Shown piece after piece: positions 2,069 to 57,613 of a stretch of 64,000 bases of DNA (position 1 is its first letter; each line of letters opens with the position of its first letter). Source of the stretch: Isurus oxyrinchus (taxonomy: Eukaryota); the NCBI GenBank assembly GCA_026770705.1, contig JANJGN010000007.1, forward strand, positions 168,206,001 to 168,270,000, in the 5' to 3' direction. The position numbers and the translations under genes are program-made. The notes below the pieces were generated by a model that had not been told where the DNA came from, did no database searches, and saw only the letters and a list, made by a program, of their open reading frames with translations.

Positions 2069-2880
2069 TCAAGTTGAAAGTACGAGCTTGACTGCGTCAT
2101 TATTGCTGCCATGCTTCTTAACTTTCTCACAATCATCTGAAGTAATATTAGGTTGTGGTGTTTGTTGTACAGCTGGAGTTCTGTTCGCAAGCATTTTCTC
2201 ATCATTAGTTCTGATGGTGAGAAACTCTTTTAGTGGTGAGGTTCTGTGGTTAAGAAGGGCTAAGTTAATATCTTTGTCCTTTTTTGTCGATTCCTTGATT
2301 GGTCGAACTCCTCTTCCTGCTTCTCTATTCGACTGAAGATATCGAGGTGAACTAGTCACATGCATGAAATCATTTTACCGTGCAAAGTTATGGAATAGCT
2401 CATTAGCAAACTGAGGACTGTTGCCTGACATCACAATGTCCAGTATGCCATGTGTCGCAAAGATTCTTCTTAGTGATATAATGACTGCCTCCCCCTGGTA
2501 CTATGCAGTCTACTCACTTCAAACCATCTGGTATAGTAATCAAGGAAGATGATGTAAACTTTGCCTTTGAACTTGAATAAGTCCAGCCCTAGGCTCTTCC
2601 ATGGCCCCATAGGAAAGGTAGATGGTGCAAGTGGTTCACTATCCACTGCATACGTAAGGTGATTTGTGATGCACTCTTCAATGGAGTGACCAATGCCTTG
2701 CCACCAAACTGACTGTTGGGCTCTTGCAGTGCGTTTGCTATTCCCAAATGACCTTTATGGGTTTTCTAAAGAATATCAAGTCAAAGTGTTTTAGGGATGA
2801 CTAGTCTGTCGTTAAAAACTAAATAATCTTCATTGATTGCAAGATATATTCTCTGTTCAAAGTACTGATGAAATATTGGG
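2069..2880 (-). pseudogene. Gypsy integrase remnant
   Basis: ORF 2069-2365 HVTSSPRYLQSNREAGRGVRPIK resembles the integrase core HxTSSPxYPQSNGxAERxVxTxK. Upstream, HKGHLGI..RAQQSVWW resembles the zinc-binding region. Confidence 0.85.
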
Positions 2881-3199
2881 CTGTTAGGAGTTTAATACAG
2901 CCATCCATTCTGGCAATACTCTTATTTTGATGCACTCATCATCCTGCTGGTGTGCTTGCTTAATTTCATGTAATCTCTTCTTGTTGGCTGTTAAATGTTT
3001 GGTAATAAACAAAGTATATGCTTCCACTTCCTCAATAAAATTTAAACCTTCATACTTGATAGCTTCCACTGGTATTCTTGACAATGCACCTGCTGTCGTC
3101 TAGTACTTCCTTTGAACATACTCAGTAAATGAATCATATCTCATAAGTCTCTGTCTAAAATATTGAATTTAAGGTGGCATTTTTTGCAATTTCCTTTAC

Positions 3200-4250
3200 G
3201 TTAAGAAGGGCAATCAAAGATTTGTGGTCAGATTCAATTTTAAATTTTAAACCTTAATCCCATGACATGATCAGAGAACTCCTTGCAGACCCACGTGGCT
3301 GCAAATGCTTCTTTCTCAATGGTTGCACACCTCTTCTCTGTATCCATGATAATAAACGTATAATAAACTGGTGGTTTTTGTCTATTTTTTGAACTTGAAA
3401 CAGCACTGCCCCCAAGCCTGTAAGTGATGCTTTAATTGTTGGTCACTCTTGATCATAGTGCACTAGAATCTCTGGTGAATTTAGGAGGTTTTTGATCTTG
3501 TCAAAAGCATTTTGCTGATCCATGTTCCAGCATCACTGTTGACATTGTCCCAACAGCTGTCTTAATGGCTCGTGGATTTCTGTCAGGTTTGGTAGGAACT
3601 TGCCTTCTTGATTGACCATACCAAGTAATCTTTGTAATTCTGTGATGTTTCTCGGTTGTGGAAACTCTGTAATGACCTTGGTTTTCTGTGGGTCAGCCAT
3701 AATTCCAGAAGCTTGCGTAATGTGCCCTAGGAGTGTTACCATTGCTTTGCAAATTCATATTTGTTGTTTAATGTCAAACCTGCTTCTTATAAGACTTTGA
3801 GGACTGTTCCTACATGGCAGTTATGTTCTTCCTTTGAGCAACCATGTACAAGAATGTCGTCCATATGACACATTACTCCTTCCATGCTTTCTAGGGTCAG
3901 AGATACTGTTCTCTGGATTATCTCAGAGTTTGAAGCAATTCTGAATGGTAACCTGTTAAAACAATAACAACCAAATAGGGTGATAAAAATAGTTAGCAAT
4001 CTGGATTCTTTGTCCAGAGGCAACTGTTGAAAGCTGCTGTTGACATCTAATTTTGTGAAGAGGATACTTTTTGCTAATTTGGTGAGACTTTCATCCACTG
4101 ATGCCAACGGGTGGATCTTGCACTCAACTGACTTGTTAAACTGAGTCAAGCCCATTCTAATTGAACCATTAGACTTTGGTACTGTGACCATTCCAGAACA
4201 CCATCAGTATGGTTACTGGACAGATGATCCCTTGGTGTAATATCTGTTCC
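3200..4250 (-). pseudogene. Gypsy reverse transcriptase / RNase H remnant
   Basis: ORF 3787-4191 has TKLDVNSSFQQ, FNRLPF and CHMDDILVHG. ORF 3533-3742 has LLGHI..GIMADPQK..FPQPRNITELQRLLGMVN (RT thumb). Confidence 0.9.
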
Positions 4251-4739
4251 ATATCACTCATGACTTTGTGTAAGAGTGGATGAGGGACCTTCCTCGCTGT
4301 GAAGAGACATATAGGTTTAGCATCTGCCCTTAGGGTTATGTAATATTCTGTTTTCAGCTTTCCTAAACCTGAAAATAAGTATGGGAATTCATTCTTGAAT
4401 ACATAATGGACTGCTCACCTGCAGTTTCATCACCCTTGTAAATCAGGCTGAACTACAAGCACGCTTTTCTGTTCAGTAATTGTGACTTTGGTTCTTTATC
4501 ACAGAGGTTCCATAATTTCTTTATCCTTGTATCTTAATCTTGCCAAATGCTGGCCTATTACTTTTCATGTAGTCCCTCCTGGATCTTGCAATTGCCTGGA
4601 GGATGGTTGTAATTTGATATTTCTTAGTCATTTCATTTCATCAGAAAATACACAGACACCTTTCTCAGTATCTAACTTGAATTCTGTGTGGTGATGATCA
4701 ATTTCTAATTTGATGTTCCTGTAATTATTTTCTGTTTCG

Positions 4740-5600
4740 TTAAACTTCTCCGAAGAGTGTTATTTGTTCTTTCTGTGGCTCTTCCACTTCTTGGATTTTG
4801 TTTGGTTTAGTTGTTATCTCTTTCTTCCTATGAGCTTTAGGAGTTTTGGATCTGCAGACTATTTTAAAATGTCCTAACTTCCCACAGTTATGGCACTCAG
4901 CTCCCCTGCTGGGTATTCTTCCTGCTTGTGCAGGGAAATTGCACACTGAGAACATCACAAGATGGCGGATAGCATGCTTTCCCCTCATTTTTGAGGGCTT
5001 TTGCTTCATTGGGGTTTCTCTTTTTTGTCCGATATCTTGAATGGTTTCACTTACTTTTCTCCAAGGGACATCACTTTCCCCATGAGCAGCCGTTCTGTTT
5101 AGCTTCCTAAACTTGGTCTGCCGCATTATTTGTACTGACTTTAAGAGAGTTAAATCTTCCCTTATTTGCAAAAGATTTGACAGGGTTTCATCTAAGACCT
5201 CAACCACTATACAATTGCGTATTAATTTATCTCTGAGGATCCCATAGTCGCAATTCTCCGCAAGTCTGTACAGGTCATTTATAAATGAATCCATGGCCTC
5301 AACTGGTTTTTGCCTCCCCAATGATCAAATTTATTTGAATACTGACTTTCGAATCGAATGCCTTATACGAGCTTGAAGCCTCATCGATGCCCTGTCTTGC
5401 AATGTCTTGCTATGGCTCCAACTGTGTTAAGTAAAGTACCAACTTGATCCTTCTGATCCTTCTTATGCAAACTTTAAGCTGTTCTGTATCTGGCAAATTT
5501 CTTTTTCTAATTGTCCCAATGTTGAACCTGTTGCAAGCCTTCAGCGCTTCAGAATGGTTCTGGGAGTGGCAATTTGGACTCCTTGCTTACCTTAGGCTCT
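4740..5600 (-). pseudogene. Gypsy gag remnant with CCHC zinc knuckle
   Basis: ORF 4740-5321 has RQKPVEAMDSFINDLYRLAENCDYG..DKLIRNCIV and CHNCGKLGHFKIVC (Cx2Cx4Hx4C). Confidence 0.88.
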
Positions 5601-7126: not shown

Positions 7127-7686
7127 GGGCAGAAATTTCTCCCTGTTGGAGGTGGGGTGGGTGTGAACCCGAACGGTGCCCCTGGTTGGGGCTGCGCCGC
7201 CATTTTACATGGACGGGCTAATTAAGGCCCGTCCAGCGTGACGCTCGCCCAGAAGTGCCGAGGGAGATTTGTTTAAGTTTTAAACACCTAAATAAAGAAA
7301 TTAAAAACTTTTAAAACATGTCCCCTCATGTGACAGTGTCACATGAGCTGGGACATGTCAGTGAATTTTTTTTTAAAAATTTTCTTGAATTTTTAAACAC
7401 TTCATGATATCTCATCCCGCCTGTGGATGAGGTCCCATGAAAAATGCGAAGGTCGCCTGGGCTCTTCGCCTCCCAACCAACCTTAAGGTTAGATGGGCAA
7501 CTCATTTAATTATTTCAATTAGTTTTTAACAGGCCCTAATAGGCCTTTGACAATTCGGCGAGCGCACAGCCGACTGAAAATCTAAATGACATGTGGTGAC
7601 AGGACACCCGCCCGACATCACCATGCATCACTTTACACGTCGGCGAGCGGGCCCCACCTCTGCTTGCCGACCTGAAAATTCTACCC
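7127..7686 (+). mobile_element. Palindrome-array MITE family A, copy 1 (internally deleted)
   Basis: TIRs gggcagaaatttc / gaaaattctaccc. Shares the ctcatgtgaca-g-tgtcacatgag hairpin and other blocks with four more copies. Orientation is arbitrary. Confidence 0.85.
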
Positions 7687-7714: not shown

Positions 7715-7931
7715 TAACAGAATTTACAGCACAGAAACAGGCCATTCAGCCCCAACAGGTCTACACTGTTGTTCATGCTCCACAGAACCTGTACAAAACA
7801 AATGAGGACGACTTCAATTTTTAACAGAATTTACAGCACAGAAACAGGCCATTCAGCCCCAACAGGTCTACACTGTTGTTCATGCTCCACAGAACCTGTA
7901 CAAAACAAATGAGGACGACTTCAATTTTTAA
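7715..7931. repeat. Perfect 107-bp tandem duplication (includes a CR1 3' tail fragment)
   Basis: 7715-7821 is identical to 7822-7928, with a taa overlap at the junction. Confidence 0.95.
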
Positions 7932-9213: not shown

Positions 9214-10790
9214 CATTAAATCCTCACTTAAAGGGTAGAATTTTTTGCCTGGCGGGCAGGCAGGTCCGACCCAATCTCCGGCGGGCGGGGAGCCGATCCT
9301 CGCCAGAGAAGAAGGCTCTGCCGCCATTTTATGTGGGCGGGCCAATTAAGGCCCGCCCAGCATGACGTCCGGTGGGAAGTGCTATACGCTTCTTGTGCAG
9401 GTGGGGGGGAGTCCCCCAAAAATGAGAGTGCGCTCTTTCGCGCATGTGCACGAAAGAGCGCACATCTCCCTGAGGCTAAGTGCTGCCTCAGGGCGATCGC
9501 TTACAGTTTTAAAAATATTAAAAACTGAAAAAAGAAATTTCCCTAACATGTCCCCCTCATGTGACAATGTCACATGAGGTGGGACATGTTCATAACTAAC
9601 TAATTAAAAATTTTAAAACCCTGCATGAAATCTCATCCCGCCCATGGATGAGGTTTCATGTTTTATCTGTCTGCCGCTGGGGCTCCTGGCCTGCCCGCCA
9701 GCCTTAAGGTTGGACGGGCAGGTACATTTCGTACTTTAATTGATCTGTCAATGGCCTCAATTGGCCATTGACAGGTCGGTGGGCCTGCAGCTGATTTTGC
9801 TGTGCCCCCGCCTTCCTGAAAATTTAAATGGGCCGGGATGATGTCGGGGGTTCCGCCCGAAGTCATCCTGCATCATTTTATGCGTTGGCGAGTGGGCCCC
9901 ACCCCTGCTCGCCAACGGCAAAATTCTGCCCTGAAAATAGCGATTTTAAGTGAAACAACTTTAAGTGAATCATTGTTAAAACTGGAGTTAGGTTCCTTCA
10001 GACATGTCTTACCCAGAAAAACCAATGCACAAGTTAAAATACTGTATCATATGTGACTATGCATTCCCAGCTGGAGTAACTTGCAAAATAAAATAAATCA
10101 CTAATTATAACAGAAATACTGTATAAATTCAAATTAGATAACACTAAATCACTCAAACAAGCCCTGGGCAGCATAGCTTCTGTGTCTCAGCCACAGCACT
10201 CTTGAAACTCAGCTCAACTTTTTGCTTGCTTTCTTTTCCACATTGTTTCTCTCTCTCTCTATTTTCCTACTCAGTGCCTCTCTCACTCCCTCCTTTCCCA
10301 CTCTGTCTCACCACCATCCCCCTCAACCTCACCCCCCCACCCCAGCCCAGGGCAGTAACTCAACAACCTGAGGCTCTGGCCAACTCCCAGTCCGAGTCTG
10401 CACCTGGACCTCTTCCTGACAGTCTGCAGACTGTCCCGGGTCATGGATGGAGCTGGGGAAGGGGGCTGCGGATAGAGCCAAGGGCCCCAATCTGTCCCCT
10501 CCTCACCTACTTTGCCACCTGTTTAGCGGCCAGCAGCTTCCTCTTACTCTCAGATCTGGGACGTCACTCTCTCCCTGCAGCCTCAACCTCTGGTGGCAGT
10601 GGTTCTGGCATGAGAACTTGGTGGCAGCTGGCACCACAGCTTGCAATGAGGCAGAGGGGTTGGGTAGGGGCAGAGTGCAGACGATGTAAGACCGAAATGG
10701 CAATGCAAATCGGAAAAGCAGGCCCTAAAGAATACACAAGGTTAAATTGAAATGTCATGAAGTGGGGTGACTTAAAGTGAGGAATTAAGG
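9214..10790. mobile_element. Old Tc1/mariner-pogo (Tigger-like) non-autonomous element, interrupted by MITE A copy 2
   Basis: Imperfect TIRs cattaaatcctcacttaaa / ttaaagtgaggaattaagg, TA on both flanks (9212-9213, 10791-10792), and subterminal ttaagtgaa repeats. Confidence 0.6.
9233..9931 (+). mobile_element. Palindrome-array MITE family A, copy 2 (most complete)
   Basis: TIRs gggtagaatttt / aaaattctgccc and six internal inverted repeats. Confidence 0.9.
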
Positions 10791-23210: not shown

Positions 23211-25518
23211 AACAAAAACAGAATTACCTGGAAAAACTCAGCAGGTCTGGCAACATCGGCGGAGAAAAAGAGTTGACATTTCGAGTCCTCGAGTCACCAA
23301 CAGAACTAGGTGAATGCAAGGAAAGGGTGAAATATAAGCTGTGTGTTGTGGGGGGTTGGGTGGGGGGAGAGAAGTGGATGGGGGTGGTGTGGTTGTAGGG
23401 ACAAGGAAGCAGTGATTGAAGCAGATCATCAAAAGATCACACAGACAAAAGAACACATAGGTGTTGAAGTTGGTGATATTATCTAAATGAATGTGCTAAT
23501 TAAGAATGGATGGTAGGGCACTCAAGGTGTAACTCTAGTGGGGGTGGGGGGAGCATAAAAGATTTTAAAATATTTGAAAATAATAGAAATAGGTGGGAAA
23601 AGAAAAATCTATATAATTTATTGGAAAAAACAAAAGGAAGGGGGAAGAAACAGAAAGGGGGTGGGGATGGAGGAGGGAGTTCAAGACCTAAAGTTGTTGA
23701 ATTCAGTATTCAGTCCGGAAGGCTGTAAAGTGCCTAGGCGGAAGATGAGGTGCTGTTCCTGCAGTTTGCGTCGGGCTTCACTGGAACAATGCAGCAAGCC
23801 AAGGACAGACATGTGGGCAAGAGCGCAGGGTGGAGTGTTAAAATGGCAAGCGACAGGGAGGTTTGGGTCATTCTTACGGACAGACCGCAGGTGTTCTGCA
23901 AAGTGGTCGCCCAGTTTACATTTGGTCTCTCCATTGTAGAGGAGACCACATTGGGAGCAATGAATACAGTAGACTAAGTTGGGGGAACTGCAAGTGAAAT
24001 GCTGCTTCACTTGAAAGGAGTGTTTGGGCCCTTGGACGGTGAGGAGAGTGGAACTGAAGGGGCAGGTGTTACATCTTTTGTGTGGGCATGGGGAGGTGCC
24101 ATAGGTGGGGGTTGAGGAGTAGGGGGTGATGGAGGAGTGGACCAGGGTGTCCCGGAGGGAACGATCCCTACGGAACGCCGACGGGGGGGGGGGGTGAAGG
24201 GAAGATGTGTTTGGTGGTGGCATCATGCTGGAGTTGGCGGAAATGGCGGAGGATGATCCTTTGAATGCGGAGGCTGGTGGGGTGATAAGTGAGGACAAGG
24301 GGGACCCTATCATGTTTCTGGGAGGGAGGAGAAGGCGTGAGGGCAGATGTGCGGGAGATGGGCCGGACACGGTTGAGGGCCCTGTCAACGACCGTGGGTG
24401 GAAAACCTCGGTTAAGGAAGAAGGAGGACATGTCAGAGGAACTGTTTTTGAAGGTAGCATCATCGGGATGGAGGCGAAGGAACTGAGAGAATGGGATGGA
24501 GTCCTTACAGGAAGCGGGGTGTGAGGAACTGTAGTCAAGGTAGCTGTGGGAGTCGGTAGGCTTGTAATGGATATTGGTGGACAGTTTATCTCCAGATATT
24601 GAGACAGAGAGGTCAAGGAAGGAAAGGGAAGTGTCAGAGATGGACCATGTGAAAATGATGGAGGGGTGGAGATTGGAAGCAAAATTAATAAATTTTTCCA
24701 AGTCCCGACGAGAGCATGAAGCAGCACCGAAGTAATCACCGATGTACCGGAGAAAGAGTTGTGGAAGGGGGCTGGAGTAGGACTGGAAAAAGAATGTTCC
24801 ACGTACCCCATAAAGAGACAGGCATAGCTGGGGCCCATGCCTGTACCCATAGCCACACCTTTTATTTGGAGGAAGTGAGAGGAGTTGAAGAAGAAATTGT
24901 TCAGTGTGAGAACAAGTTCAGCCAGACGGAGGAGAGTAGTGGTGGATGGGGATTGTTCGGGCCTCTGTTCGAGGAAGAAGCTAAGGGCCCTCATACCATC
25001 CTGGTGGGGGATGGAGGTGTAGAGGGATTGGACGTCCATGGTGGAGAGGAAGTGGTTGGGGCCAGGGAACTGGAAATTGTTGATGTGACGTAAGATGTCA
25101 GAGGAATCACGGATATAGGTGGGAAGGGACTGGACAAGGGGAGAGAGAAGGGAGTCAAGATAACGAGAAATGAGTTCCGTGGGGCAGGAGCAAGCTGACA
25201 TGATCGGTCTACCGGGGCAGTTCTGTTTGTGGATTTTGGGTAGAAGGTAGAAGCAGGCCGTCCGAGGTTGGGCGACTATCAGGTTGGAAGCTGTGGGAGG
25301 AAGATCCCCAGAGGAGATGAGGTTAGTGACAGTCCTGGAAACAATGGCTTGATGTTCAGTGGTGGGGTCATGGTCCAGGGGGAGGTAGGAGGAAGTGTCT
25401 GCGAGTTGATGCTCAGCCTCCGCGAGGTAGAGGTCAGTGCGCCTGACAACAACAGCACCACCCTTGTCAGCGGGTTTGATGACAATGTCAGGGTTGGACC
25501 TGAGAGAATGCGTGCCCC
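23211..25518 (-). mobile_element. Penelope-like element family 1 (Neptune-like), 5'-truncated, with 15-bp TSD
   Basis: cagtgttaattgtag at 23196-23210 and 25519-25533. RT, Cys-rich linker, GIY-YIG, pyrimidine-rich 3' UTR and pLTR end are all present. Confidence 0.95.
23681..25518 (-). pseudogene. PLE RT + GIY-YIG endonuclease ORF, inactivated
   Basis: IVIKPADKGG, LLPKIHK, GRPI, MDVQSLYTSIPH, GVAMGTGMGPSYACLFMG. The catalytic motif reads RYIGD in a shifted frame. Also CPHKRCNTC and NLVYCIHCSQCGLLYNGET. Two compensating frameshifts; the correct middle frame is ORF 24168-24701. Confidence 0.92.
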
Positions 25519-25832
25519 CAGTGTTAATTGTAGCTGTGATTGACTTTCTTTTGTGAATCCTACGCTTCTCAAGGTTTGAATGGCATTCATGCTGTGCGTG
25601 GGCCGTTTTTAATTTAGTCATCTGGTATCAACATCAAGCACTTGCAGGTCAAGTGTACCGTGCTTAGATATGTGAAAATTTCTCCTTACTCTGGTCAAAG
25701 TGAGCGTGATCCCCACTTTTAAAAGAACACCCATTCAGTGCACAAGCGTGGCATTGTTCCATTTCCTACATTGGCCATCCCGTGTTGTTCAGGAGATTAA
25801 GGATAATATTAGAATAATAGAAGAGGCTTATA

Positions 25833-26428
25833 GGGCTGCATCTTTTGGTCGGCGAGCGGGGGTGGGGCCTACTCGCCGACACGTAAAATGACGCGTCCCA
25901 ATGTCACCCCACATCATTTACATTTCAGGCCGACGGGCTATTAAGGCCATTAAGAAAGTAATTGAAATCATTAATGGACCTGCCCGTCCAGCCAGGCGGG
26001 CTTCTGAAAAAACATGAAACCTCATCCATGGGCGGGATGAGGTTTCATGAGGGATTTCAACATTTCTGAGTATTTTAAAATAAAAGTTATGGACATGTCC
26101 CAACTCATGTGACAGTGTCACATGAGAGGGGACATGGCAGCGAATTTATTTCTATTGTTCAAACAGCTTTTTACATTTGAGCCTACTCCCTGAGGCAGCG
26201 CAAAAGAGCGCGTTCCCAGCTCAGGGAACCCCCCCCCCCCCACCCAAACATGGAGTGCAAAGCCCTTCCTAGCGCACAGCACGCTGGGTGGACCTTAATT
26301 GGCGCGTCCACATAAAATGGCAGCGCACCCCCGAGTGGGGGCACTGATCAGGAACCTGCCTGCCCACGCCCATGCCCGCACATTCCACCACCCCTCAAAC
26401 AGTGGGGGGCGGGCGGGGAATGTTGCCC
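25833..26428 (-). mobile_element. Palindrome-array MITE family A, copy 3
   Basis: Reverse orientation. Ends gggctgcatctt / gaatgttgccc with ATA on both flanks. Hairpin catgaaacctcatcc-N7-ggatgaggtttcatg is perfect. Confidence 0.88.
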
Positions 26429-26454: not shown

Positions 26455-28375
26455 TCTGAGGATTTGGTGTGTTACAGAAACCAGCAAAGGATTATCAAAA
26501 GTTGATAGAAAGGGGAAAAATTAGAATATGAGAGTAAGCTAGCCAGGAATATAAAAACTGATTGTAAGAATTTTTACCACTGTATAAAAAGGAAGAGAAT
26601 AGCTAAAGTAAATGTTGGTTCCTTAGAAGCAGCGACAGAAGAAATAATCATAGGGAAAGACGAAATGGCAGCAACATTGAATATTTTGTGCCTGTCTTCA
26701 CAGTAGAAGCCACAAGTTTCATACCAGAAACATAGGGTAACCTCAGGGCTAATAAGAGTGAGGAAATTAGGTAATTAATATCAGCAAAGAAAAAATACCA
26801 GAGAAACTCGAGGGGCTAAAATCTGACATATCCCCAGGACCTGATGGCCTACACCCGAGGATTCTAAAAGAGGTAGCTGCAAAGATAGTGGATGTGCTGG
26901 CTATGATTATCCAAAGTTTCCTAATTTCTGGGATGGTCCCAGCAGACTGGAAGTTAGCAAATGTAACACCACTGTGCAGGAAAAGAGGGAGAGGGAAAAC
27001 ATGGAATTACAGGCCAGTAAGTCTGACATCAGTCATTGGGAAAATGCTGGAATCTTTTATTAAGCAAGGCTTAACAATGCACTTAAAGCATAATATGTTT
27101 AGAACAAGTCAACATGGTTTTATGGAAGGGAAGTCTTGTTTGACAAATTTATGAGTTTTTTGAAGATGTAGCTAGTAGGGCAGAAAAAGGGAAACCAGTA
27201 GACATAATATACTTGGATTTCCAAATGGCATGCAATAAGGTGCCACACAAAAGGTTAATTAATATACAAGATAAGGGATCGTGCATTTGAGGGTAATATA
27301 ATAACATGAATAGAGGATTGGTTAATGGACAGGAAGCAGAGAGTAAGGATAAATGGTGCATTTTCAAGTTGACATGTTGTAACTAATGAGTGCCGTAAGG
27401 ATTGATGCTGGGGTCTCAACTATTTACAAGCTGTATTAGTGACTTAGACGAAGATGCAGAGAGTAATATAGCTGGGTTTGCTGACAATACATAGCTAGGT
27501 GTGAATGCAAGCTGTGAGGAAGACACAAAGAAACTGAAAAGAGATATAGACAGGTTAACTGAGTAGGCAACAAGGTGGCAGATGGAGTATAATGTGGGCA
27601 AGTGTGAGGTTGTATGAATAGAAAAGTAGAATATTTTTAAAAGGTGTGAAACTTATATGTGTTAATGTTCAGAGAGACTTGGATGTACTTGTACAAGGAA
27701 CACAAAAAGTTAGCGTACAGAGACAGTTAGCAATTAGGAAAGCAAACAAAATGTTGGTCTTTATTACAAGGGGATTGGAGTACAAGAATAAAGAAGTCTT
27801 GTTACAAATATACAGGATTTTGGAGTACTGTGTGCAATTTTGGTCTCCATGTTCTAGGAAGGAAATACTTGCGTTGTAGTTCGTATAGCAAGGATTCATT
27901 GGATCAGTTTCTGGGATGGTTATCCTTTGATGAGAAGCTGAGTAAATTGGTCTATATTCTCTGGAATTTAGAAGAATGTGAGGTGATCTCATTGAAAGGT
28001 TTAAAATTCTGAGGGGGCTTGACAGGGTAGATACCGAGACGTTCCCACTGGCCGGGGAATCTAGAACAAGGGGGCCACCATTTCAGGATAAGGGGCTGAT
28101 CATTTAGGCCTGAGATGAAAAATTTCTTCACTCAAAGGGTTTTAAATCTTTGGAATTTTCTATCTGAGTGCTGTGGATGTGCCATCATTGAATATATTTA
28201 AGGCTGAGTTAGACACATATTTGGTCCCTCAGAGAATCAAGAGATATGGGAAGTGGGAAGGAAATTGGAGTTGAAGCTCAAGATCAGCCATGGTCTTATT
28301 GAATGGTGGATCAGGCTTGTTCAGGATCAGGATCAGGTATGTCCGAATCTTGCTCCTATTTCTTATGTTATTATG
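26455..28375 (+). mobile_element. CR1 LINE, ORF2 3' half with RT, decayed
   Basis: SPGPDGLHPRILKE, WKLANVTPL, NYRPVSLTSV, QHGFMEGKSCLTNL, FADNT, LEYCVQFWSP. 3' tail cctatttcttatgttattatg. Confidence 0.95.
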
Positions 28376-35339: not shown

Positions 35340-37550
35340 TAAATCACAATTTTCAATGGTGATTATATAGATGCTTAAACCACAATATAACCTGAGTCAC
35401 TTTGAGATGTGTTCATGGAATATATTCAAGATAGTTTTCTAAATCAATATGTTGAGGAATCAACTAGGGGACAGACTATTTTAGATCTAGTATTATACAA
35501 TTAGAAAGCTTTAATTAATAACCTTATTATAAATGATCCTCTGGGGAAGAGTGATCACAATATGATTCAATTTTATGTTGCGCTAAAAAGTGATTTAGTT
35601 CATTCTGAGGCTAAATCTGTAGAAAGCAAAGTACGAGGGTTGAGTTGGTTGAGGTAGATTGGGGATCAAGATTATAAGGTATGAAGATAGATAAAAAATG
35701 ACAAATATTTAAAGAATTAGCTTATGATACGCATCCAATATCCATTCGCTTAAGGAATAAAATCCCCCTGGGAAAAGCGGTCCTACCATGGCTAACAAGA
35801 TAAATTAAAGAAAGTACTGGACTAAAGGAAAAGGCTCTTAATGCTGCCAAAAACGTTGTAGTGAGCCTGAGGATTGGACCAAGAAATTAATAAAGAGAAA
35901 AGAGAACATGAGAGTACATTAGCAAGGGACATAAAAACAGATTGTAAAAATGCAAAGATTAACAAAATTAAGCTTGGACCATTTAACAGTCAACAGGAGA
36001 GATTATAATGGGGATCAATGAGGCTATGGTGAAACGGCACTAGGCGAATTGCTGTTACAAAGAGCCAGCATGGACATGACAGGCTGAATGGCTTCTTCCT
36101 ATGCTATAGCCATTCTATGATTCTATGATAAAGGAATGGCAGAGGTAATAAATATAAACTTTGGGTTGGATTCTCCCATGGGCTTCTGAACCACATGGGG
36201 GTCATAAACCCTCACCCTCTGGCAGTCAGAGCACCTCAGCAATTTTTTGGAAAGCCACCTTCACATTCACCATCCTATTAAGGACAATGGGTGACTGCTC
36301 AATGCTGCAGGTCCAATAAGAGGGACAGGAGCTCTGGAGCTCCAATCTGGAGAGGTATGTGATGCTAAGGCAGGCCAGGGACTGCGAGGGCACCCTCGTT
36401 GGACTGCACAATAGTGAAGAAATAAACAAGATCTTGGCTGGCAGACCCATGGGATTGGAGGGGAAACCTCTCCACTGGATTTGGTACAGCCGTGATTGTG
36501 GCCTTTCATGATCGCAGTCCTGTCAACGTAGCACGAAGCCTTCAGCTCCAATTGTGTCTCAACCTGCCTTTGGGTGTTTGTCTCCATTGAGCTGAGGCCT
36601 CCACATGCAGCAGGATCTGCTCTCTTAGCAGCAAATTGGTGGCAAGGCTGCAAAATCACCCCTTTTTGAAGCCTTAACTGGCGTAATTGACTGTCCGTCT
36701 CTGTGGAGGGGGCAGCCGATCCAATTCCCAACCCTCTCCTGAGAAAATTACCTGGGGATGGGAGTGTGTTGTGTAGCTGTTCTGACATGGCTCGTCCCTT
36801 ATTTCCCTGGCTCCCACACCTCCAAGCCCACCACCACAGGACCAGGAAAATCCAGCCTCTGTTCCTGTCTTCATTGTGGAAAACACAAAAAAACATTATG
36901 GAAATAGTGGGGAACCAAAGTCTAGAGAGAGCGAGGAACTTAGTACTGGATAAGTTAATGGGTCAGACAGCCAACAGATCCCCTGGACCTGATGGCCTAC
37001 ATCCTTGGGTTTTAAAAAAGGCAGCTGCGGATCCACTGGTTTTGATCTTTCAGAACTCCCTAGATTTTAGAATGATTCTAGTGGATTAGAAGGTAGCAAG
37101 CATAGCCCCACTATTCAAGAAAGGAGGGAGAGAGAATACTGAACTTAAGGCCAGTTAACCTGACAACTATGGCGGGAAAAATGCTAAAACCTATTATAAG
37201 GGGAATGGTGGCAAGGTACCTAGAAAATCATAATATTTTTGGGAAGAATCAACATGGATTTATGAAAGGGATCTGTTTTTTGAGTTTGTAGCTAGAGGAC
37301 AGATAAGACACAATCAGTGGATGTAGTGTATTTAGATTTTCAAAAAAGACATTCAAGGTGGCACACGAGTTTGTTACACAAAATTGGGGCTCGTGGAATT
37401 AGAGATAATATATTCCCATAGATTGAGGATTGGTTAGATATTGGACAGATAAATAGATCATTTTCAGGTTGTAAAGCTGTAACTAGTAGAGTACCACAAG
37501 GATCAGCAAACTACAATCTATATCAGTGAGTTAGGACCAAGGTTGATACA
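35340..37550 (+). mobile_element. CR1 LINE ORF2 fragment with nested insertions
   Basis: FLNQYVEESTRGQTILDLVL, PLGKSDHNMI, SPGPDGLHPWVLK, NQHGFMKG. Interrupted by a CR1 3' tail (about 36030-36128) and a TIR element (36163-36858). Confidence 0.88.
36163..36858. mobile_element. MITE with GGGYTGGATT-type TIRs inserted in CR1
   Basis: Ends gggttggattct / aaaatccagcct. CR1 sequence is contiguous across the insert (compare 26660-26712). Confidence 0.7.
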
Positions 37551-40404: not shown

Positions 40405-41170
40405 TCATAGCATGATACAGCACAGGAGGCCATTCAGCCCATCAAGCCTGTCCCAGTTCCTTCAAAGTGCTTTGCAATTACTCCCACTCCCCTGCTGTTT
40501 CCCCATTGTCCTATAATTTCTTTTTTAAAAGTAGAGATCCAATTCCCTTTTGAAAGTTACTATTGAATCTGCTTCCAAGATTCTTTCAGGCAGTTCATTC
40601 AGTTCAGCTCGCTGTGTGAAAAAAAATCTCCCCCTACCTGTTTTGCCAATTATCTTAAATCTGTGTTTTCTGGTTACCAATTCTCCTCCCAGTACGAACC
40701 AATACTCTATATCTTGTCTGTCAAAACATACATCTTCTAGAACACTTCTATCAAATCTCCCCTCTCTGTTTTAAAGAAAACATTCACAGCTTCTGTACAC
40801 TGTCCATAGACTGCAGTTTCTCCGCCTGAGTACCATTCTGGTAAATCTCCTCTGTACCCTTCCCAAGGTCTTGACAGCCTTCTTAAAGCATGGCACTTAA
40901 AATTGGACAGATTATTTCATCCAACATCTAACCTGTGATTTACTAAGGTTTACTATAACTCCCTTGCTTTTCCATTTGAAGCCCCTATTTATGAAGCCAA
41001 GAAGACTGTGTGCTTTTTTTTTTAGCAGATTTGTCAACTTGCTCTGCAACCTTCAAAGAGTTGCATAACAAACCCCTAGGTCTCTGTTGCTGTGTCCCTT
41101 TAAAACGGCACCATTTAGCTTACAAGGCTTCTCTTCATTTTTCCTTCAAAAATGTATCATTTTACACTTC
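40405..41170 (-). mobile_element. CR1 LINE 3' end
   Basis: Collinear with 11905-12690. Confidence 0.85.
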
Positions 41171-42759: not shown

Positions 42760-43335
42760 TTCTGAAGACACTGAATCATGGTGGATATGCTTACATAGGC
42801 ACCAGATGTGCTTCAGTACCTTGCCCAAGTGGCCAGCCTTCACATATGGACCCAGTCAATGAATGTCAAGTGGCTGTTCAACCACAGAGTGCATACCATC
42901 CAAATCTGATCTAATCTTCAGCTGACAACCAAACGCCCAGTGACTAGCAATCAGAAAGAGAAACCAGTTTTTTTAATTCTCTCCGCTCTAACCCAAGACA
43001 CTGAAGTTAATGTGCCATTTCTACCACTGCACTTTGGAAGTCTTGTGGCTCAGTAGGTAGCACCCCAGTCTCTGAGACAGAATTTCCGGGTTCAAGTCCC
43101 ACTCCAGGACTTGTTGGCCACAGAAGGAGCGTTTATGATGCAGTACAAACTGTTGATAATCAACCTGCTAATCTTTTCAACACTCCTCCCACTATTTCCC
43201 AAAAGTGAAAGAAACATGTTTGTTAGAGATACCAAGGAAACCACTGCCCTTATCGAGATAAGTCACCACCAACCAGTGATTGAACCTAGGATCTTCCTAG
43301 CCTGTGATACTCAGTTTCACACCTTTTATCCACTG
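42760..43335 (-). mobile_element. Old SINE-like repeat (family also at about 54730-55010 + and probably 11250-11340 -)
   Basis: gtaccttgcccaagtggcca is a diverged reverse complement of tggttgcttgggtaaagcac at 54952-54971. The head near 43270-43310 resembles 54760-54815. Unclassified. Confidence 0.5.
43045..43113 (+). mobile_element. tRNA-derived head of a Deu-domain SINE
   Basis: gtggctcagtaggtagcac (A box) and gggttcaagtccc (B box), followed by the SINE-specific actccaggacttg. Confidence 0.7.
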
Positions 43336-43989
43336 AACTAGTAACTAGGGAATCCTGTTTCTTTTTAAAAAAACTCTCGCTATATATCTTTTCCACCACA
43401 AATAAATCCTTCCATATATTTAATTTTGTAGTTATAATCTTATTATACACTTCACCTGAGCTATCTATGCCCTCACTGGAACTGCTCAGTTTAGAGTTCA
43501 AATTCTCTTATTCTATATTGATTTCAAGAATTGTGTATGTAAGAGGAGCTAGATCAAGGATGCTACCACAATAATAAACCTACTGTATTGATTGGGGAGG
43601 GTTATAGTTGTGATTGACATTCTTGGAGGTGCTCACTTATGTTTCTGTTATGATTTGAAAAAGCCTGCCAATTAACTGACCTGAGCAGAGTAAGGGTGGT
43701 CAAAGAGGAGCCTACACAATATCTGCATTAACCAGTTTCTAGGGAGTGCTTAACTCAATTTGTATATTGTGACCATATGTGATTTCATCTTTAGGTATTC
43801 AGTATTCCTACAAAAAATTCTAAGGATGGAGAGACTTACATTATCTACTTAATTGCATAATTCACAGAGAATATGGAGTTCAAGTGGCTGAATTAAAAAT
43901 TATAAACAAAATGTAGGTTAGTCAATTTCAAATATCTTTCCAAAGTGTGGAGATGGTGCTCCAGAAAGACTTACTGATTAGTACTGAAC

Positions 43990-45697: not shown

Positions 45698-46394
45698 AGG
45701 CAGCATTATCTGGCCAGCGAGCGGGGGCGGGGCTTGCTCGCCGATGCATAAAATGACATGGGCTGACTTCAGGCTTGCGTCCCAATGTCACCCTGTGTCA
45801 ATTAGATCCTCAGTTTGGCGGGTGTGCAGCCGACTCAGCTGTGTGCCCGCTGACCTGTCAACGGCCACTTAAAGCCATTAGTGAGGTACTTAAAACACTT
45901 AATGGACATGCCCGTCCAACCTTAAGGTTGGCAGGCAGGCGAAGAGCCCAGGCGGCCTTCAGAAAAAACATGAAACCTCATCCACGGGTGGGATGAGGTT
46001 TCATGAGGGTTTTAAAATCTTAACATGCTCTTCAAATAAAATTATGGACATGCCTCAGCTCAAGTGACAGTGTCACATGAGGGGACATATCAGTAAAATT
46101 TTTTCTATCCTTTAATCTGTTTTTCACATTTGAGCCGATCTCCCTGAGGCAGCACTTAGCCTCAGGGAGATCTATGCGCTCTTTCGTGCGCATGCGTGAA
46201 AGAGCGCACTCCCAGGTCAGGGAATCCCCCAACCCACCTGTACAGAGAGCACAGAACGCTTCTGGTGCACGTCATGCTGGGCGGACCTTAATTGGCCCAC
46301 CCCGAGTAAAATGGTGGCACACCCCGAATGGAGGCGCCGATCAGGAACCCACCCGCTCCCGCACAACCCCCCAATGGGGCGGGAAATGTTGCCC
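45698..46394 (-). mobile_element. Palindrome-array MITE family A, copy 4
   Basis: Ends aggcagcatt / aatgttgccc with flanks TAG / TAC. Perfect 14-bp-arm hairpin gatctccctgaggc-N8-gcctcagggagatc. Confidence 0.9.
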
Positions 46395-55571: not shown

Positions 55572-56162
55572 GGGCTGGATTTTTCCCTCCTCTACCAGCA
55601 GGTTTGAAGACAGGGGTCTCATAAAATCCAGCAAGTGGCCTCCCCGCAGCCAATTAATGGCCATTTAAGGGCCTTATCCCATCCCTGCCTCTATTTCACA
55701 CGTGGCAGCGGCAGGCCCACGCCATGTGGGAAGCCCAGCAGCTTTAATTGCACAGGCTGGCATTGGGCAGATGGTGAGGGGGAAACCTCCTTTACGCATC
55801 AGATCACACTTCCCCCTTTATCCCACCCCCTAGCCTCTCAAACCCGCTCCCCCACCCATTTCAACCCCCTTGCCAGAGCCTGCCAACCTGACCCTGGCAA
55901 AATCCTCCCCACTTACCTTGGTGTCCAGCTGAAATGATGGGACTGCCTGTAGTCCCAGCACGTGGCCGCCATTCCCGTCTGGCACAGCTGTGATTGACTG
56001 GCAGTCGTCTGAGGCAGAATTTCCTGTCCCTGAGGGGCAGAAATCCTGCCTCCAGCCTATTAACAGCCAATTGACCATTAAATGACAGTGCAGCAGCTAT
56101 TCTTCCCCCTTGACTTTTTAGCCAGGGAGTGGGGACCACAATGCCCTGTAAAAATCCGCCCC
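55572..56162. mobile_element. MITE family B (PIF/Harbinger-like), CAT TSD
   Basis: TIRs gggctggattttt / aaaaatccgcccc, CAT at 55569-55571 and 56163-56165, internal hairpin at 56011-56052. Confidence 0.8.
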
Positions 56163-56281
56163 CATGGCTCTCTTCCAGAAACATCCGTTTTCACAGAATC
56201 ACAAAATGTTATAGGAGGATATTCACCATCATGCCTATGCCAGCTCTTTGAATTAATCCCACTCCCCTGCTCTCTCCCCAC

Positions 56282-56889
56282 GGGGAGAATTTTCTCCCCG
56301 TCGGGCAGGCCGGTTAGGAGCAGGCGCGGATGGGTGTGTGCTGCCATTCTACGTGGGCGGGCCAATTAAGGCCCACCCAGCGTGATGTACACTTGGAAGC
56401 GCTTAGCGTTACCTGTACGGGCGGGGGGGAGGAGGGAGAGTCGGGACCTGCGCTCTATCGTGCACGCGTGCGGAAGAGCATGGAAACCTCCCTGAGGCAG
56501 CTCTGTTCCTCAAGGAGATTAAGTTCAGTTCAAAAGATTTTTAAAATAAAATAAAATTATTCGGACATGTCCCCTCATGTGACAGTGACATGAGCTGGGA
56601 CTTGTTAATGGATTTTAATAAAAAAATTTGATTTCATTTATAAACCCTTCATGAAACCTCATCCCTCTCGTGGATGAGGTTTCAAGAAAAATCTGAAGGC
56701 CGGCTGGGCTCTTTGCCCTGGCAATCACTTCAGTTAGGTAACTAATGGCCTTAACAGGCCTTTGACAGTTCGGCGGGCGCGCAGCCAACTCTGGTTCGCG
56801 CCAGGCGTACTGAAGATCAGAACAATGTGCAGTGACATCGGAGTACCAACCCGTTCCCACCCCCACATGCCAAACGGAAGATTCTGGCT
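56282..56889 (+). mobile_element. Palindrome-array MITE family A, copy 5
   Basis: Ends ggggagaatttt / aagattctggct with flanks CAC / CAT. Same internal hairpin series. Confidence 0.88.
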
Positions 56890-56896
56890 CATATTT

Positions 56897-56926
56897 TATA
56901 TATATATATGTATATATATATATATA
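56897..56926. repeat. (TA)n microsatellite
   Basis: Read directly. Confidence 0.9.
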
Positions 56927-57613
56927 ATGTTTTCTTTGCAAGTACAGATTTAATTCACTTTTGAAAGTTACCATTGCATTTGCTTCCACCATCTTTTCAG
57001 ACTGCGCATTCCAAATTATCATAACTTCCTGCGTAAAAAAAAGTTATCCTCACCTTTTTTTGCCAGTTACCTTAACTCAATCTGTCTCCACTAGTTGCAA
57101 CCTTCCTGCTAGTGGAAACAGTTTTCATTGTCTACTCTACAGAAAACCCTCATAATTTTGAGTACCTGTTTTATTACATGGATGAATTAATTGATATTTT
57201 AATTTTTTGTTTGCTAAAGACTAGTAAAGTTGACAGGAAGACTGATTCATTTTTGACCCTCTTTAGAATCTGTAGTCTGATTTCACCAGTATTATTGTAG
57301 TGCTTTTAAATTAGAACTATTCTTTCTAAAAGCTAAAATAATATGATCTAATGTCACTCATGCAGCTTTACAGATGGATACAAGCTCACTCACTGTCCAA
57401 CCCTTTCCCCACTCAGTTTGCGTTACAGTCACCTCTGGGTCAGAGCTTGATCATTCAAGCCTCACAGCAGAACTTTAAGCACACTATCAAGTTTGGCGAT
57501 TCCGCCTATGAACGAGGAGTGCTACCCTTTCATCTTTCAGGTGAAATGTTAAGCCATGTCTCTATCTGCCTGTTCAGGTGCCATGTCCTTCTCCAAAGAA
57601 CACAATTCTTGTG

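Follow-up and report, generated by a model that had tools for sequence, protein, structure and literature searches.

Five copies of a non-coding element of 560-699 bp were found by BLAST and an alignment profile in the window (the whole 64-kb stretch of DNA that was analysed), and the interior of the element is a chain of palindromes, some of which are better conserved than the TIRs at its ends. Judged from the literature, the class of the element is ordinary and the unusual feature is that the interior is better conserved than the ends. From the sequences, we give roughly even credence to a model in which a Harbinger-like transposase and a Myb/SANT partner would move the element, the core palindromes being putative protein sites selected through the mobility of master copies.

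The positions of the five copies in the initial annotation were borne out (Table 1), and a profile of the five copies revealed no sixth copy in the window; nor were extra copies found near the GCCAATTAA-like matches at 43667 and 53889. The five copies are 66-74% identical to one another (blastn) and no ORF of at least 55 aa overlapping any of them had a Pfam match. As previously noted, A/B or E are deleted in some copies: copy 1 lacks A and the left arm of B, copy 3 the right arm of A and the left arms of B and E, and copy 5 the whole of E. The internal deletions show a microhomology of 0-2 nt (scripted measure). A tRNA-derived SINE identity was rejected since no tRNA was called, and a bacterial, plasmid or phage origin since palindrome D gave 0 matches in genome contigs and none in plasmids or phages. 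A very high genomic copy number is plausible from this one window, the 95% interval being 1.6-11.7 copies per 64 kb. In the grey reef shark, where all DNA transposons together account for 1.58%, Tourist/Harbinger types are the most frequent of them (PMC12498223). The present family alone makes up 4.9% of the window, so that either this window is unusually rich in such elements or their annotation is incomplete.

Table 1. Coordinates of the palindromes, spacers and TIRs of copy 2 and of the five copies of the element.
Feature	Positions	Strand	Remarks
P0	9335-9358		GGCC-N6-GGCC core; in 5/5 copies; centre AATTAA in 5/5
A	9428-9463		CpG-rich; both arms in 3/5 copies
B	9464-9497		13-bp arms; 8-nt centre in 3/3 complete copies; centre of copy 5 differs at 7/8 positions
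AT-rich spacer 1	9498-9545		45-48 nt, 68-85% A+T across copies
C	9546-9589		outer and inner arms; 1-nt variable centre; in 5/5 copies
AT-rich spacer 2	9590-9623		34 nt in copy 2; 42-44 nt in the others
D	9624-9660		15-bp arms; 7-nt centre in 5/5
E	9692-9720		complete in 3/5 copies
F	9745-9774		perfect only in copy 2; elsewhere GGCC-N6-GGCC core
F2	9778-9812		CpG-decayed; 32/51 cells symmetric
G	9826-9878		23-bp arms; 55/78 cells symmetric
H	9884-9916		subterminal; 34/40 cells symmetric in four copies
Left TIR, copy 2	9233-9244	+	about 12-13 bp, starts GGG
Right TIR, copy 2	9920-9931	+	GGG-ended
Copy 1	7127-7686	+	560 bp; without A and B-left; flanks GGA/CAG, no TSD
Copy 2	9233-9931	+	699 bp, near full-length, non-coding; flanks AAA/TGA, no TSD
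Copy 3	25833-26428	-	596 bp; second TIR type; exact ATA/ATA TSD; inside CR1 ORF2 remnant
Copy 4	45698-46394	-	697 bp, near full-length; second TIR type; flanks TAG/TAC
Copy 5	56282-56889	+	608 bp; without E, G-right and H-left; flanks CAC/CAT

Palindromes A to F were all present in copy 2, in the order first described, but the chain of six proposed at that time had missed four others (P0, F2, G and H), giving at least ten palindromes in a near-continuous chain broken mainly by the two AT-rich spacers. C and D were kept in all five copies, in agreement with the earlier description. F is symmetric at 12/12 positions in copy 2 and at 9/12, 4/9, 5/12 and 6/12 in the others. A further presumed palindrome between D and E was discarded on account of its asymmetric arms. 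Inverted repeats with arms of at least 8 numbered 7, 4, 5, 4 and 2 in copies 2, 1, 5, 4 and 3 (one repeat each in copies 1 and 2 being AT-rich spacer), numbers that were attained by 0, 0, 0, 1 and 9 of 100 shuffles, respectively; shuffle means were 0.45-0.78 (0.73 for copy 2), and the window outside the copies holds about 0.9 inverted repeats per 650 bp.

Whether the stems are better conserved than the spacers could be decided from the pairwise identities, and they are: the arms are identical at 1290/1506 cells (86%) and the spacers, which look more divergent than they are owing to poly-A slippage, CpG decay and misalignment, at 796/1345 (59%), with the TIRs between them (173/240, 72%) and the left and right subtermini at 62% and 67%. 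The arms were first defined on copy 2 and the comparison comprises five copies; with copy 2 left out, the arms were still 84% identical compared to 60% for the spacers. None of 703 circular shifts of the labels matched the stem excess, which persisted in GC, AT and non-CpG columns taken separately (66% identity for non-stem and 87% for stem columns in the non-CpG set). The excess is greatest in the centre, where the inner arms of C (208/212, 98%) and the arms of D (278/300, 93%) exceed the TIRs, followed by B (132/145) and the outer arms of C (151/171); P0 (146/180, 81%), A (113/150, 75%) and F (160/228) are lower. The core formed by B, C and D departs from its symmetric consensus at 16/418 sites (3.8%), while non-palindromic non-CpG sites depart from consensus at 266/1276 (21%). 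The arms of C and D hold no CpG, and CpG cells elsewhere have changed at 27%. When the 16/418 core departures are compared to those of the terminal GGG and TSD bases (5/54, P 0.08), the core is kept slightly better, which would hint at protection after insertion. Over the ten pairs of copies, arm identity is flat (83-90%) whereas spacer identity ranges from 51 to 72%, the top value being that of the pair with a common TIR type. This is the pattern expected if masters had diverged in their spacers and not in their core, the copies then decaying by a few percent.

Both ends of all five copies carry GGG-ended TIRs of about 12-13 bp, the 3' end of copy 5 being degenerate. The single TIR of about 12 bp in the initial annotation, GGGYAGAATTTT, fits copies 1 and 2 and, loosely, copy 5, but the TIRs of copies 3 and 4 are of another type. 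Copies 3 and 4 also define the commonest shared split among non-stem columns (12 columns; next 9), and together these likenesses indicate that more than one master lineage has been sampled. The 3-bp TSD had been proposed from the flanks ATA/ATA, TAG/TAC and CAC/CAT, only the first of which is an exact repeat; the flanks of copies 1 and 2, left aside at that time, mismatch, so that an exact 3-bp flank repeat is found in one copy out of five (copy 3). Across the five copies 8/15 flank positions match, which is above chance (P 0.02) but below the yield of intact TSDs at 86% identity (P 0.002). Empty sites nevertheless uphold the duplication. At copy 3, 6 nt are present where the CR1 homologue P0141 (stingray), the one homologue spanning both flanks among the alignments listed (19 named were tried), expects one codon, hence exactly 3 nt extra; copy 5 interrupts a repeat, and the empty paralogue of this repeat at 40470-40661 carries a single CAT at the insertion point. 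Copies 1 and 2 have no paralogue for such a comparison and the TSD thus rests on copies 3 and 5; a shift of the left boundary by 1-2 nt could provide TSDs for copies 1 and 2, a possibility that is post hoc and was left uncounted. These results support a non-autonomous TIR element with a 3-bp target duplication.

Several features of individual insertions were observed at these boundaries. The left TIR of copy 5 now belongs to a local palindrome that reaches into the flank (56276-56305, 13 matched pairs), which suggests perfecting by template switch after insertion, and a TA microsatellite (56890-56928) that is missing from the empty paralogue has expanded right after the right TSD of the same copy. 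On either side of copy 2 lie the halves of a short inverted pair (9225-9232 and 9942-9951), and these flanks may resemble a small pogo-like element; a target deletion at insertion could be the cause of its missing TSD.

Regarding the class of the element, a non-autonomous PIF/Harbinger-like (PHIS) element is the most likely. Given its GGG ends and 3-bp TSD, the element is likely mobilised by a PHIS-type transposase; this part of the initial assignment stands, but membership is likely at most since no TWA duplication and no transposase were found in the window. The TWA consensus is seen in 0/5 copies and is also missing from the neighbouring TIR element at 55572-56162. As for NuwaI, the termini are GGG but CWG is duplicated in 0/5 copies, one single flank reading CAG. 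Membership in Spy, which has no TSD and an AAA|TTT target, failed as copies 3 and 5 are duplicated and AAA|TTT flanks are found in 0 copies. Kolobok/T2 elements target TTAA, and Tc1/mariner-Stowaway elements target TA; both were rejected, since a scan of duplication lengths 2-10 found TA/TA or TTAA/TTAA in 0 copies. An autonomous partner with the same TIRs, encoding a DDE transposase and a Myb/SANT protein, had been anticipated, and no transposase or Myb gene was found among the 372 ORFs of at least 55 aa in the window (Pfam). Such a pair is established for the superfamily (PMC2836001, PMC9179366, PMC9392472, PMC13668399), in which the Harbinger ORF1/Myb-like protein binds element ends (PMC2836001, PMC9179366); besides the TWA target of PIF/Harbinger and the CWG target of NuwaI, the table of PMC4482050 also has NNN targets.

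Two further sequences of the window have comparable ends. The element at 55572-56162 (591 bp), 120 bp from copy 5, has GGG-ended TIRs of 13 bp, exact CAT/CAT flanks and an unrelated interior with a P0-like GCCAATTAA motif and an inverted pair of TIR-like motifs near 56012-56051; it is not palindrome-rich (48/100 shuffles). A GC-rich sequence of 696 bp at 36163-36858 has similar TIR-like ends (11/14 matching), flanks TTT/CTG and no coding signal, and is possibly a third, older family; its candidacy as a transposase remnant was rejected (no Pfam match, Atlas scores below 0.8).

In the model to which we give even credence, a Harbinger-like transposase would act in trans on the non-coding element, which would be excised and then reinserted, and the central palindromes would be double-stranded sites for dimeric proteins that aid transposition. 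Candidate binders are the Myb/SANT partner of the element or host dimeric factors, and the bound protein would most likely help the two ends to meet or keep the element accessible to the transposase. Masters that retain the core dyads would move more often. Selection would thus act on the mobility of masters and not on each inserted copy, and the five copies would derive from several master lineages in which spacers, and even TIRs, drifted while B, C and D remained unchanged.

The geometry of the palindromes bears on this model. P0, B, C, D and F have centres of constant length (6, 8, 1, 7 and 6 nt, respectively), which in all of them but P0 differ in sequence between copies, and the distance from C to D is 8.1, 7.1, 8.0, 7.9 and 7.9 helical turns in copies 1 to 5, copy 2 having lost about one turn relative to the eight or so of the others. 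Centres that are constrained in length but free in sequence, and a C-to-D distance close to a whole number of turns, are suggestive of dyad protein sites. From D to H, centre-to-centre distances are equal in every copy retaining the interval: copies 2 and 4 differ there at 73 sites with 0 gaps, where 4.3 are expected from the non-CpG differences, and copies 2, 4 and 5 show 0 small gaps among them despite 45-56 non-CpG differences (P 0.005-0.014). These P values use 62 gaps per 656 mismatches in 11 other repeat pairs, and the signal is regional, in a region picked post hoc; when copies 2 and 4 are compared from end to end, they show 10 small gaps for 12 expected, no clear deficit. Against protein sites stand the loss of part or all of A, B, E, F2, G and H from some copies, be it before or after insertion, and the case of mPing, whose internal effects do not depend on a specific sequence (PMC9921582).

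The same palindromes also fold strongly. The folding of copy 2 has a z-score of -13 for DNA and of -15 for RNA, each from 20 shuffles, nearly the whole element being a hairpin chain, and the palindromes could thus work at the DNA level as cruciforms or single-strand hairpins, promoting amplification through fork stalling or gap-repair templating, for instance, or else as structured RNA. The perfection of F in copy 2 only and the outer stems, with 6 symmetric changes in 256 non-CpG cells for 1.5-2.6 expected, are in line with such structures. On inspection, however, one of the six changes was of CpG type and two lay at stem edges, and the 3 that remain are not above expectation. Moreover, the core shows 0 compensatory changes in 209 pair-cells although the adjoining DNA has diverged by about 21%, and its rigid centre lengths are needless for hairpins. 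Over the seven first-defined stems, 4 pairs have changed on both sides, a number equalled in 172/500 shuffles, the power of covariation being low with five sequences. No Rfam family was obtained at threshold, the 7 weak matches all being far under gathering scores. The lack of covariation and of an Rfam family disfavours a structural or RNA role for the core, and we regard such a role as unlikely. Among the functions first offered, dimeric protein sites therefore fit best, conserved arms without compensatory change and fixed centres being better explained by them than by hairpins or small-RNA precursors; for the core, the evidence speaks against the other two functions, namely cruciform or single-stranded DNA signals and a source of structured or small RNA.

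The conservation of the core could also have a purely mutational origin. The palindromes would then be functionless fold-back or template-switch by-products of one ancestor, seemingly conserved as they are CpG-free and non-repetitive amid hypermutable spacers. The arms of C and D are indeed devoid of CpG, the spacers consist of A/T runs, the identity of a stem goes with its CpG content, from A and P0 up to the inner arms of C, and many palindromes have been deleted in some copies. The stem excess is nevertheless found in non-CpG columns, in GC and AT columns alike, and the TIRs have split into two types whereas C and D have not. In addition, unbiased arm-to-arm correction would have fixed many symmetric changes, and the core has none. 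We judge this neutral origin improbable, to about the same degree as a structural role. Still less probable, in our opinion, is that selection in the host has preserved the core palindromes of inserted copies as transcription-factor sites, so that the family would have spread regulatory elements. The palindrome arms may resemble known motifs, those of C E-box sites and those of A NRF1 or E2F-type sites. Plant MITEs have amplified transcription-factor motifs (PMC5950925), but palindrome A misfits the plant E2F motif tabulated there. The lower departure of the core compared to terminal and TSD bases that must be intact would also fit. Such selection would, however, have to act on 5/5 copies in 64 kb, two of them within dead repeats, and the window yielded no host gene; the 3.8% non-CpG departure beside 27% at CpG is moreover compatible with ordinary decay. 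The CpG-to-non-CpG mutation rate ratio used is the mammalian value.

A more specific form of the protein-site model is an enhanceosome-like cassette, in which about ten different, spacing-constrained dyads with a CpG-free core would outlast changes of the TIRs, and hence of transposase specificity, since host dimeric proteins would license transposition. We put this forward only tentatively, and consider it doubtful.

Among known systems, Tourist-like MITEs and other non-autonomous PIF/Harbinger elements (mPing, Harbinger3N_DR, Harbinger-1M_cIno) are alike in their short TIRs starting with G, their 3-bp TSD, their non-coding interior and their multiple copies (PMC4482050, PMC9179366, PMC13668399). 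By contrast, the TSDs are here ATA, CAT and TAG/TAC instead of TWA, and the element, at about 700 bp, is larger than the 100-500 bp described for MITEs (PMC2836001). The termini of the C. inopinata family are described as conserved, whereas in the present element conservation is higher at the centre than in the TIRs. NuwaI elements, which have TIRs of 12-61 bp usually starting with GGG, animal hosts, a 3-bp TSD and a Myb/SANT partner, are also alike, but the duplications found here meet neither the CWG target of NuwaI nor the C|TNA|G target of NuwaII (PMC4482050). A term search of supplement 1 of PMC4482050 returned no cartilaginous-fish family, Callorhinchus appearing only in its genome list.

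Internal sequences modulate how readily mPing, Ost35, Spm and Sleeping Beauty transpose (PMC9921582). The TnpA sites of Spm, the direct repeats of Sleeping Beauty and the sequences of Stowaway Ost35 are, like the palindromes in our model, mobility-raising sequences located inward of the TIRs, and those of Spm and Sleeping Beauty act via protein binding (PMC9921582). They differ in being repeated or dispersed motifs near the ends (PMC9921582), whereas the present element has about ten mutually different long dyads distributed over its whole length, of which the best kept lie 300-430 bp from the 5' end. The effects of the mPing interior were judged to be independent of its exact sequence (PMC9921582). 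Fold-back MITEs and palindromic MER elements yielding miRNA-like hairpins share the strong predicted folding, but, as described, form one end-to-end hairpin; here the palindromes are serial and local, with a core devoid of covariation and without Rfam match. No description of the family or of its architecture was found in the literature searched, to which most subscription papers did not belong; PMC5753468 and PMC9004415 offer nothing closer, and the palindrome motifs gave seven matches, seemingly single occurrences in unrelated papers.

The window (41% GC, CpG o/e 0.29) contains remnants of Penelope, CR1 and LTR retrotransposons. A Penelope-type retroelement with long open frames and RT and GIY-YIG-type homologues (23681-25627, minus strand) lies about 200 bp from copy 3; among the 120 matches listed for its ORF, the highest identities are to Chiloscyllium punctatum (71%, 68%) and the best E-value is to newt (45%). 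For the CR1 piece, identity is 60-65% with entries from Callorhinchus and Hypanus and 44-56% with those of birds and reptiles. The host suggested by these mobile elements, as distinct from a host gene, is a cartilaginous fish and probably a shark. The remains of a broken LTR retrotransposon, matching RT and RNase H, occupy about 2070-5330 (minus strand), and the search for a transposase or Myb gene among the ORFs gave matches to RT or RNase H only, at 3243-3431, 3790-4203 and 26771-27151. Two long ORFs near 34.3 kb had no PDB match. Adjoining copy 1, a 107-bp LINE-tail-like unit is perfectly duplicated in tandem (7715-7931), which is either a recent duplication or an assembly artefact. The sequence at 43040-43110, which we take by eye to resemble the head of a tRNA-derived SINE, contains no tRNA called by ARAGORN.

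How non-autonomous elements attain huge copy numbers is only partly understood, and internal determinants have been mapped in a few plant MITEs. Harbinger was reported absent from the elephant shark, and its presence in other cartilaginous fishes was raised as a question (PMC9179366), on which the present MITE family bears. If the family were already catalogued and its pattern mutational, it would merely be an ordinary shark repeat. If the protein-site model is true, a vertebrate family with interior dyads above its TIRs in conservation would be a clean and testable case of sequence-specific internal cis-elements and, should the enhanceosome-like cassette be real, it would be a portable transposition enhancer, with very many copies of its sites scattered through shark genomes.
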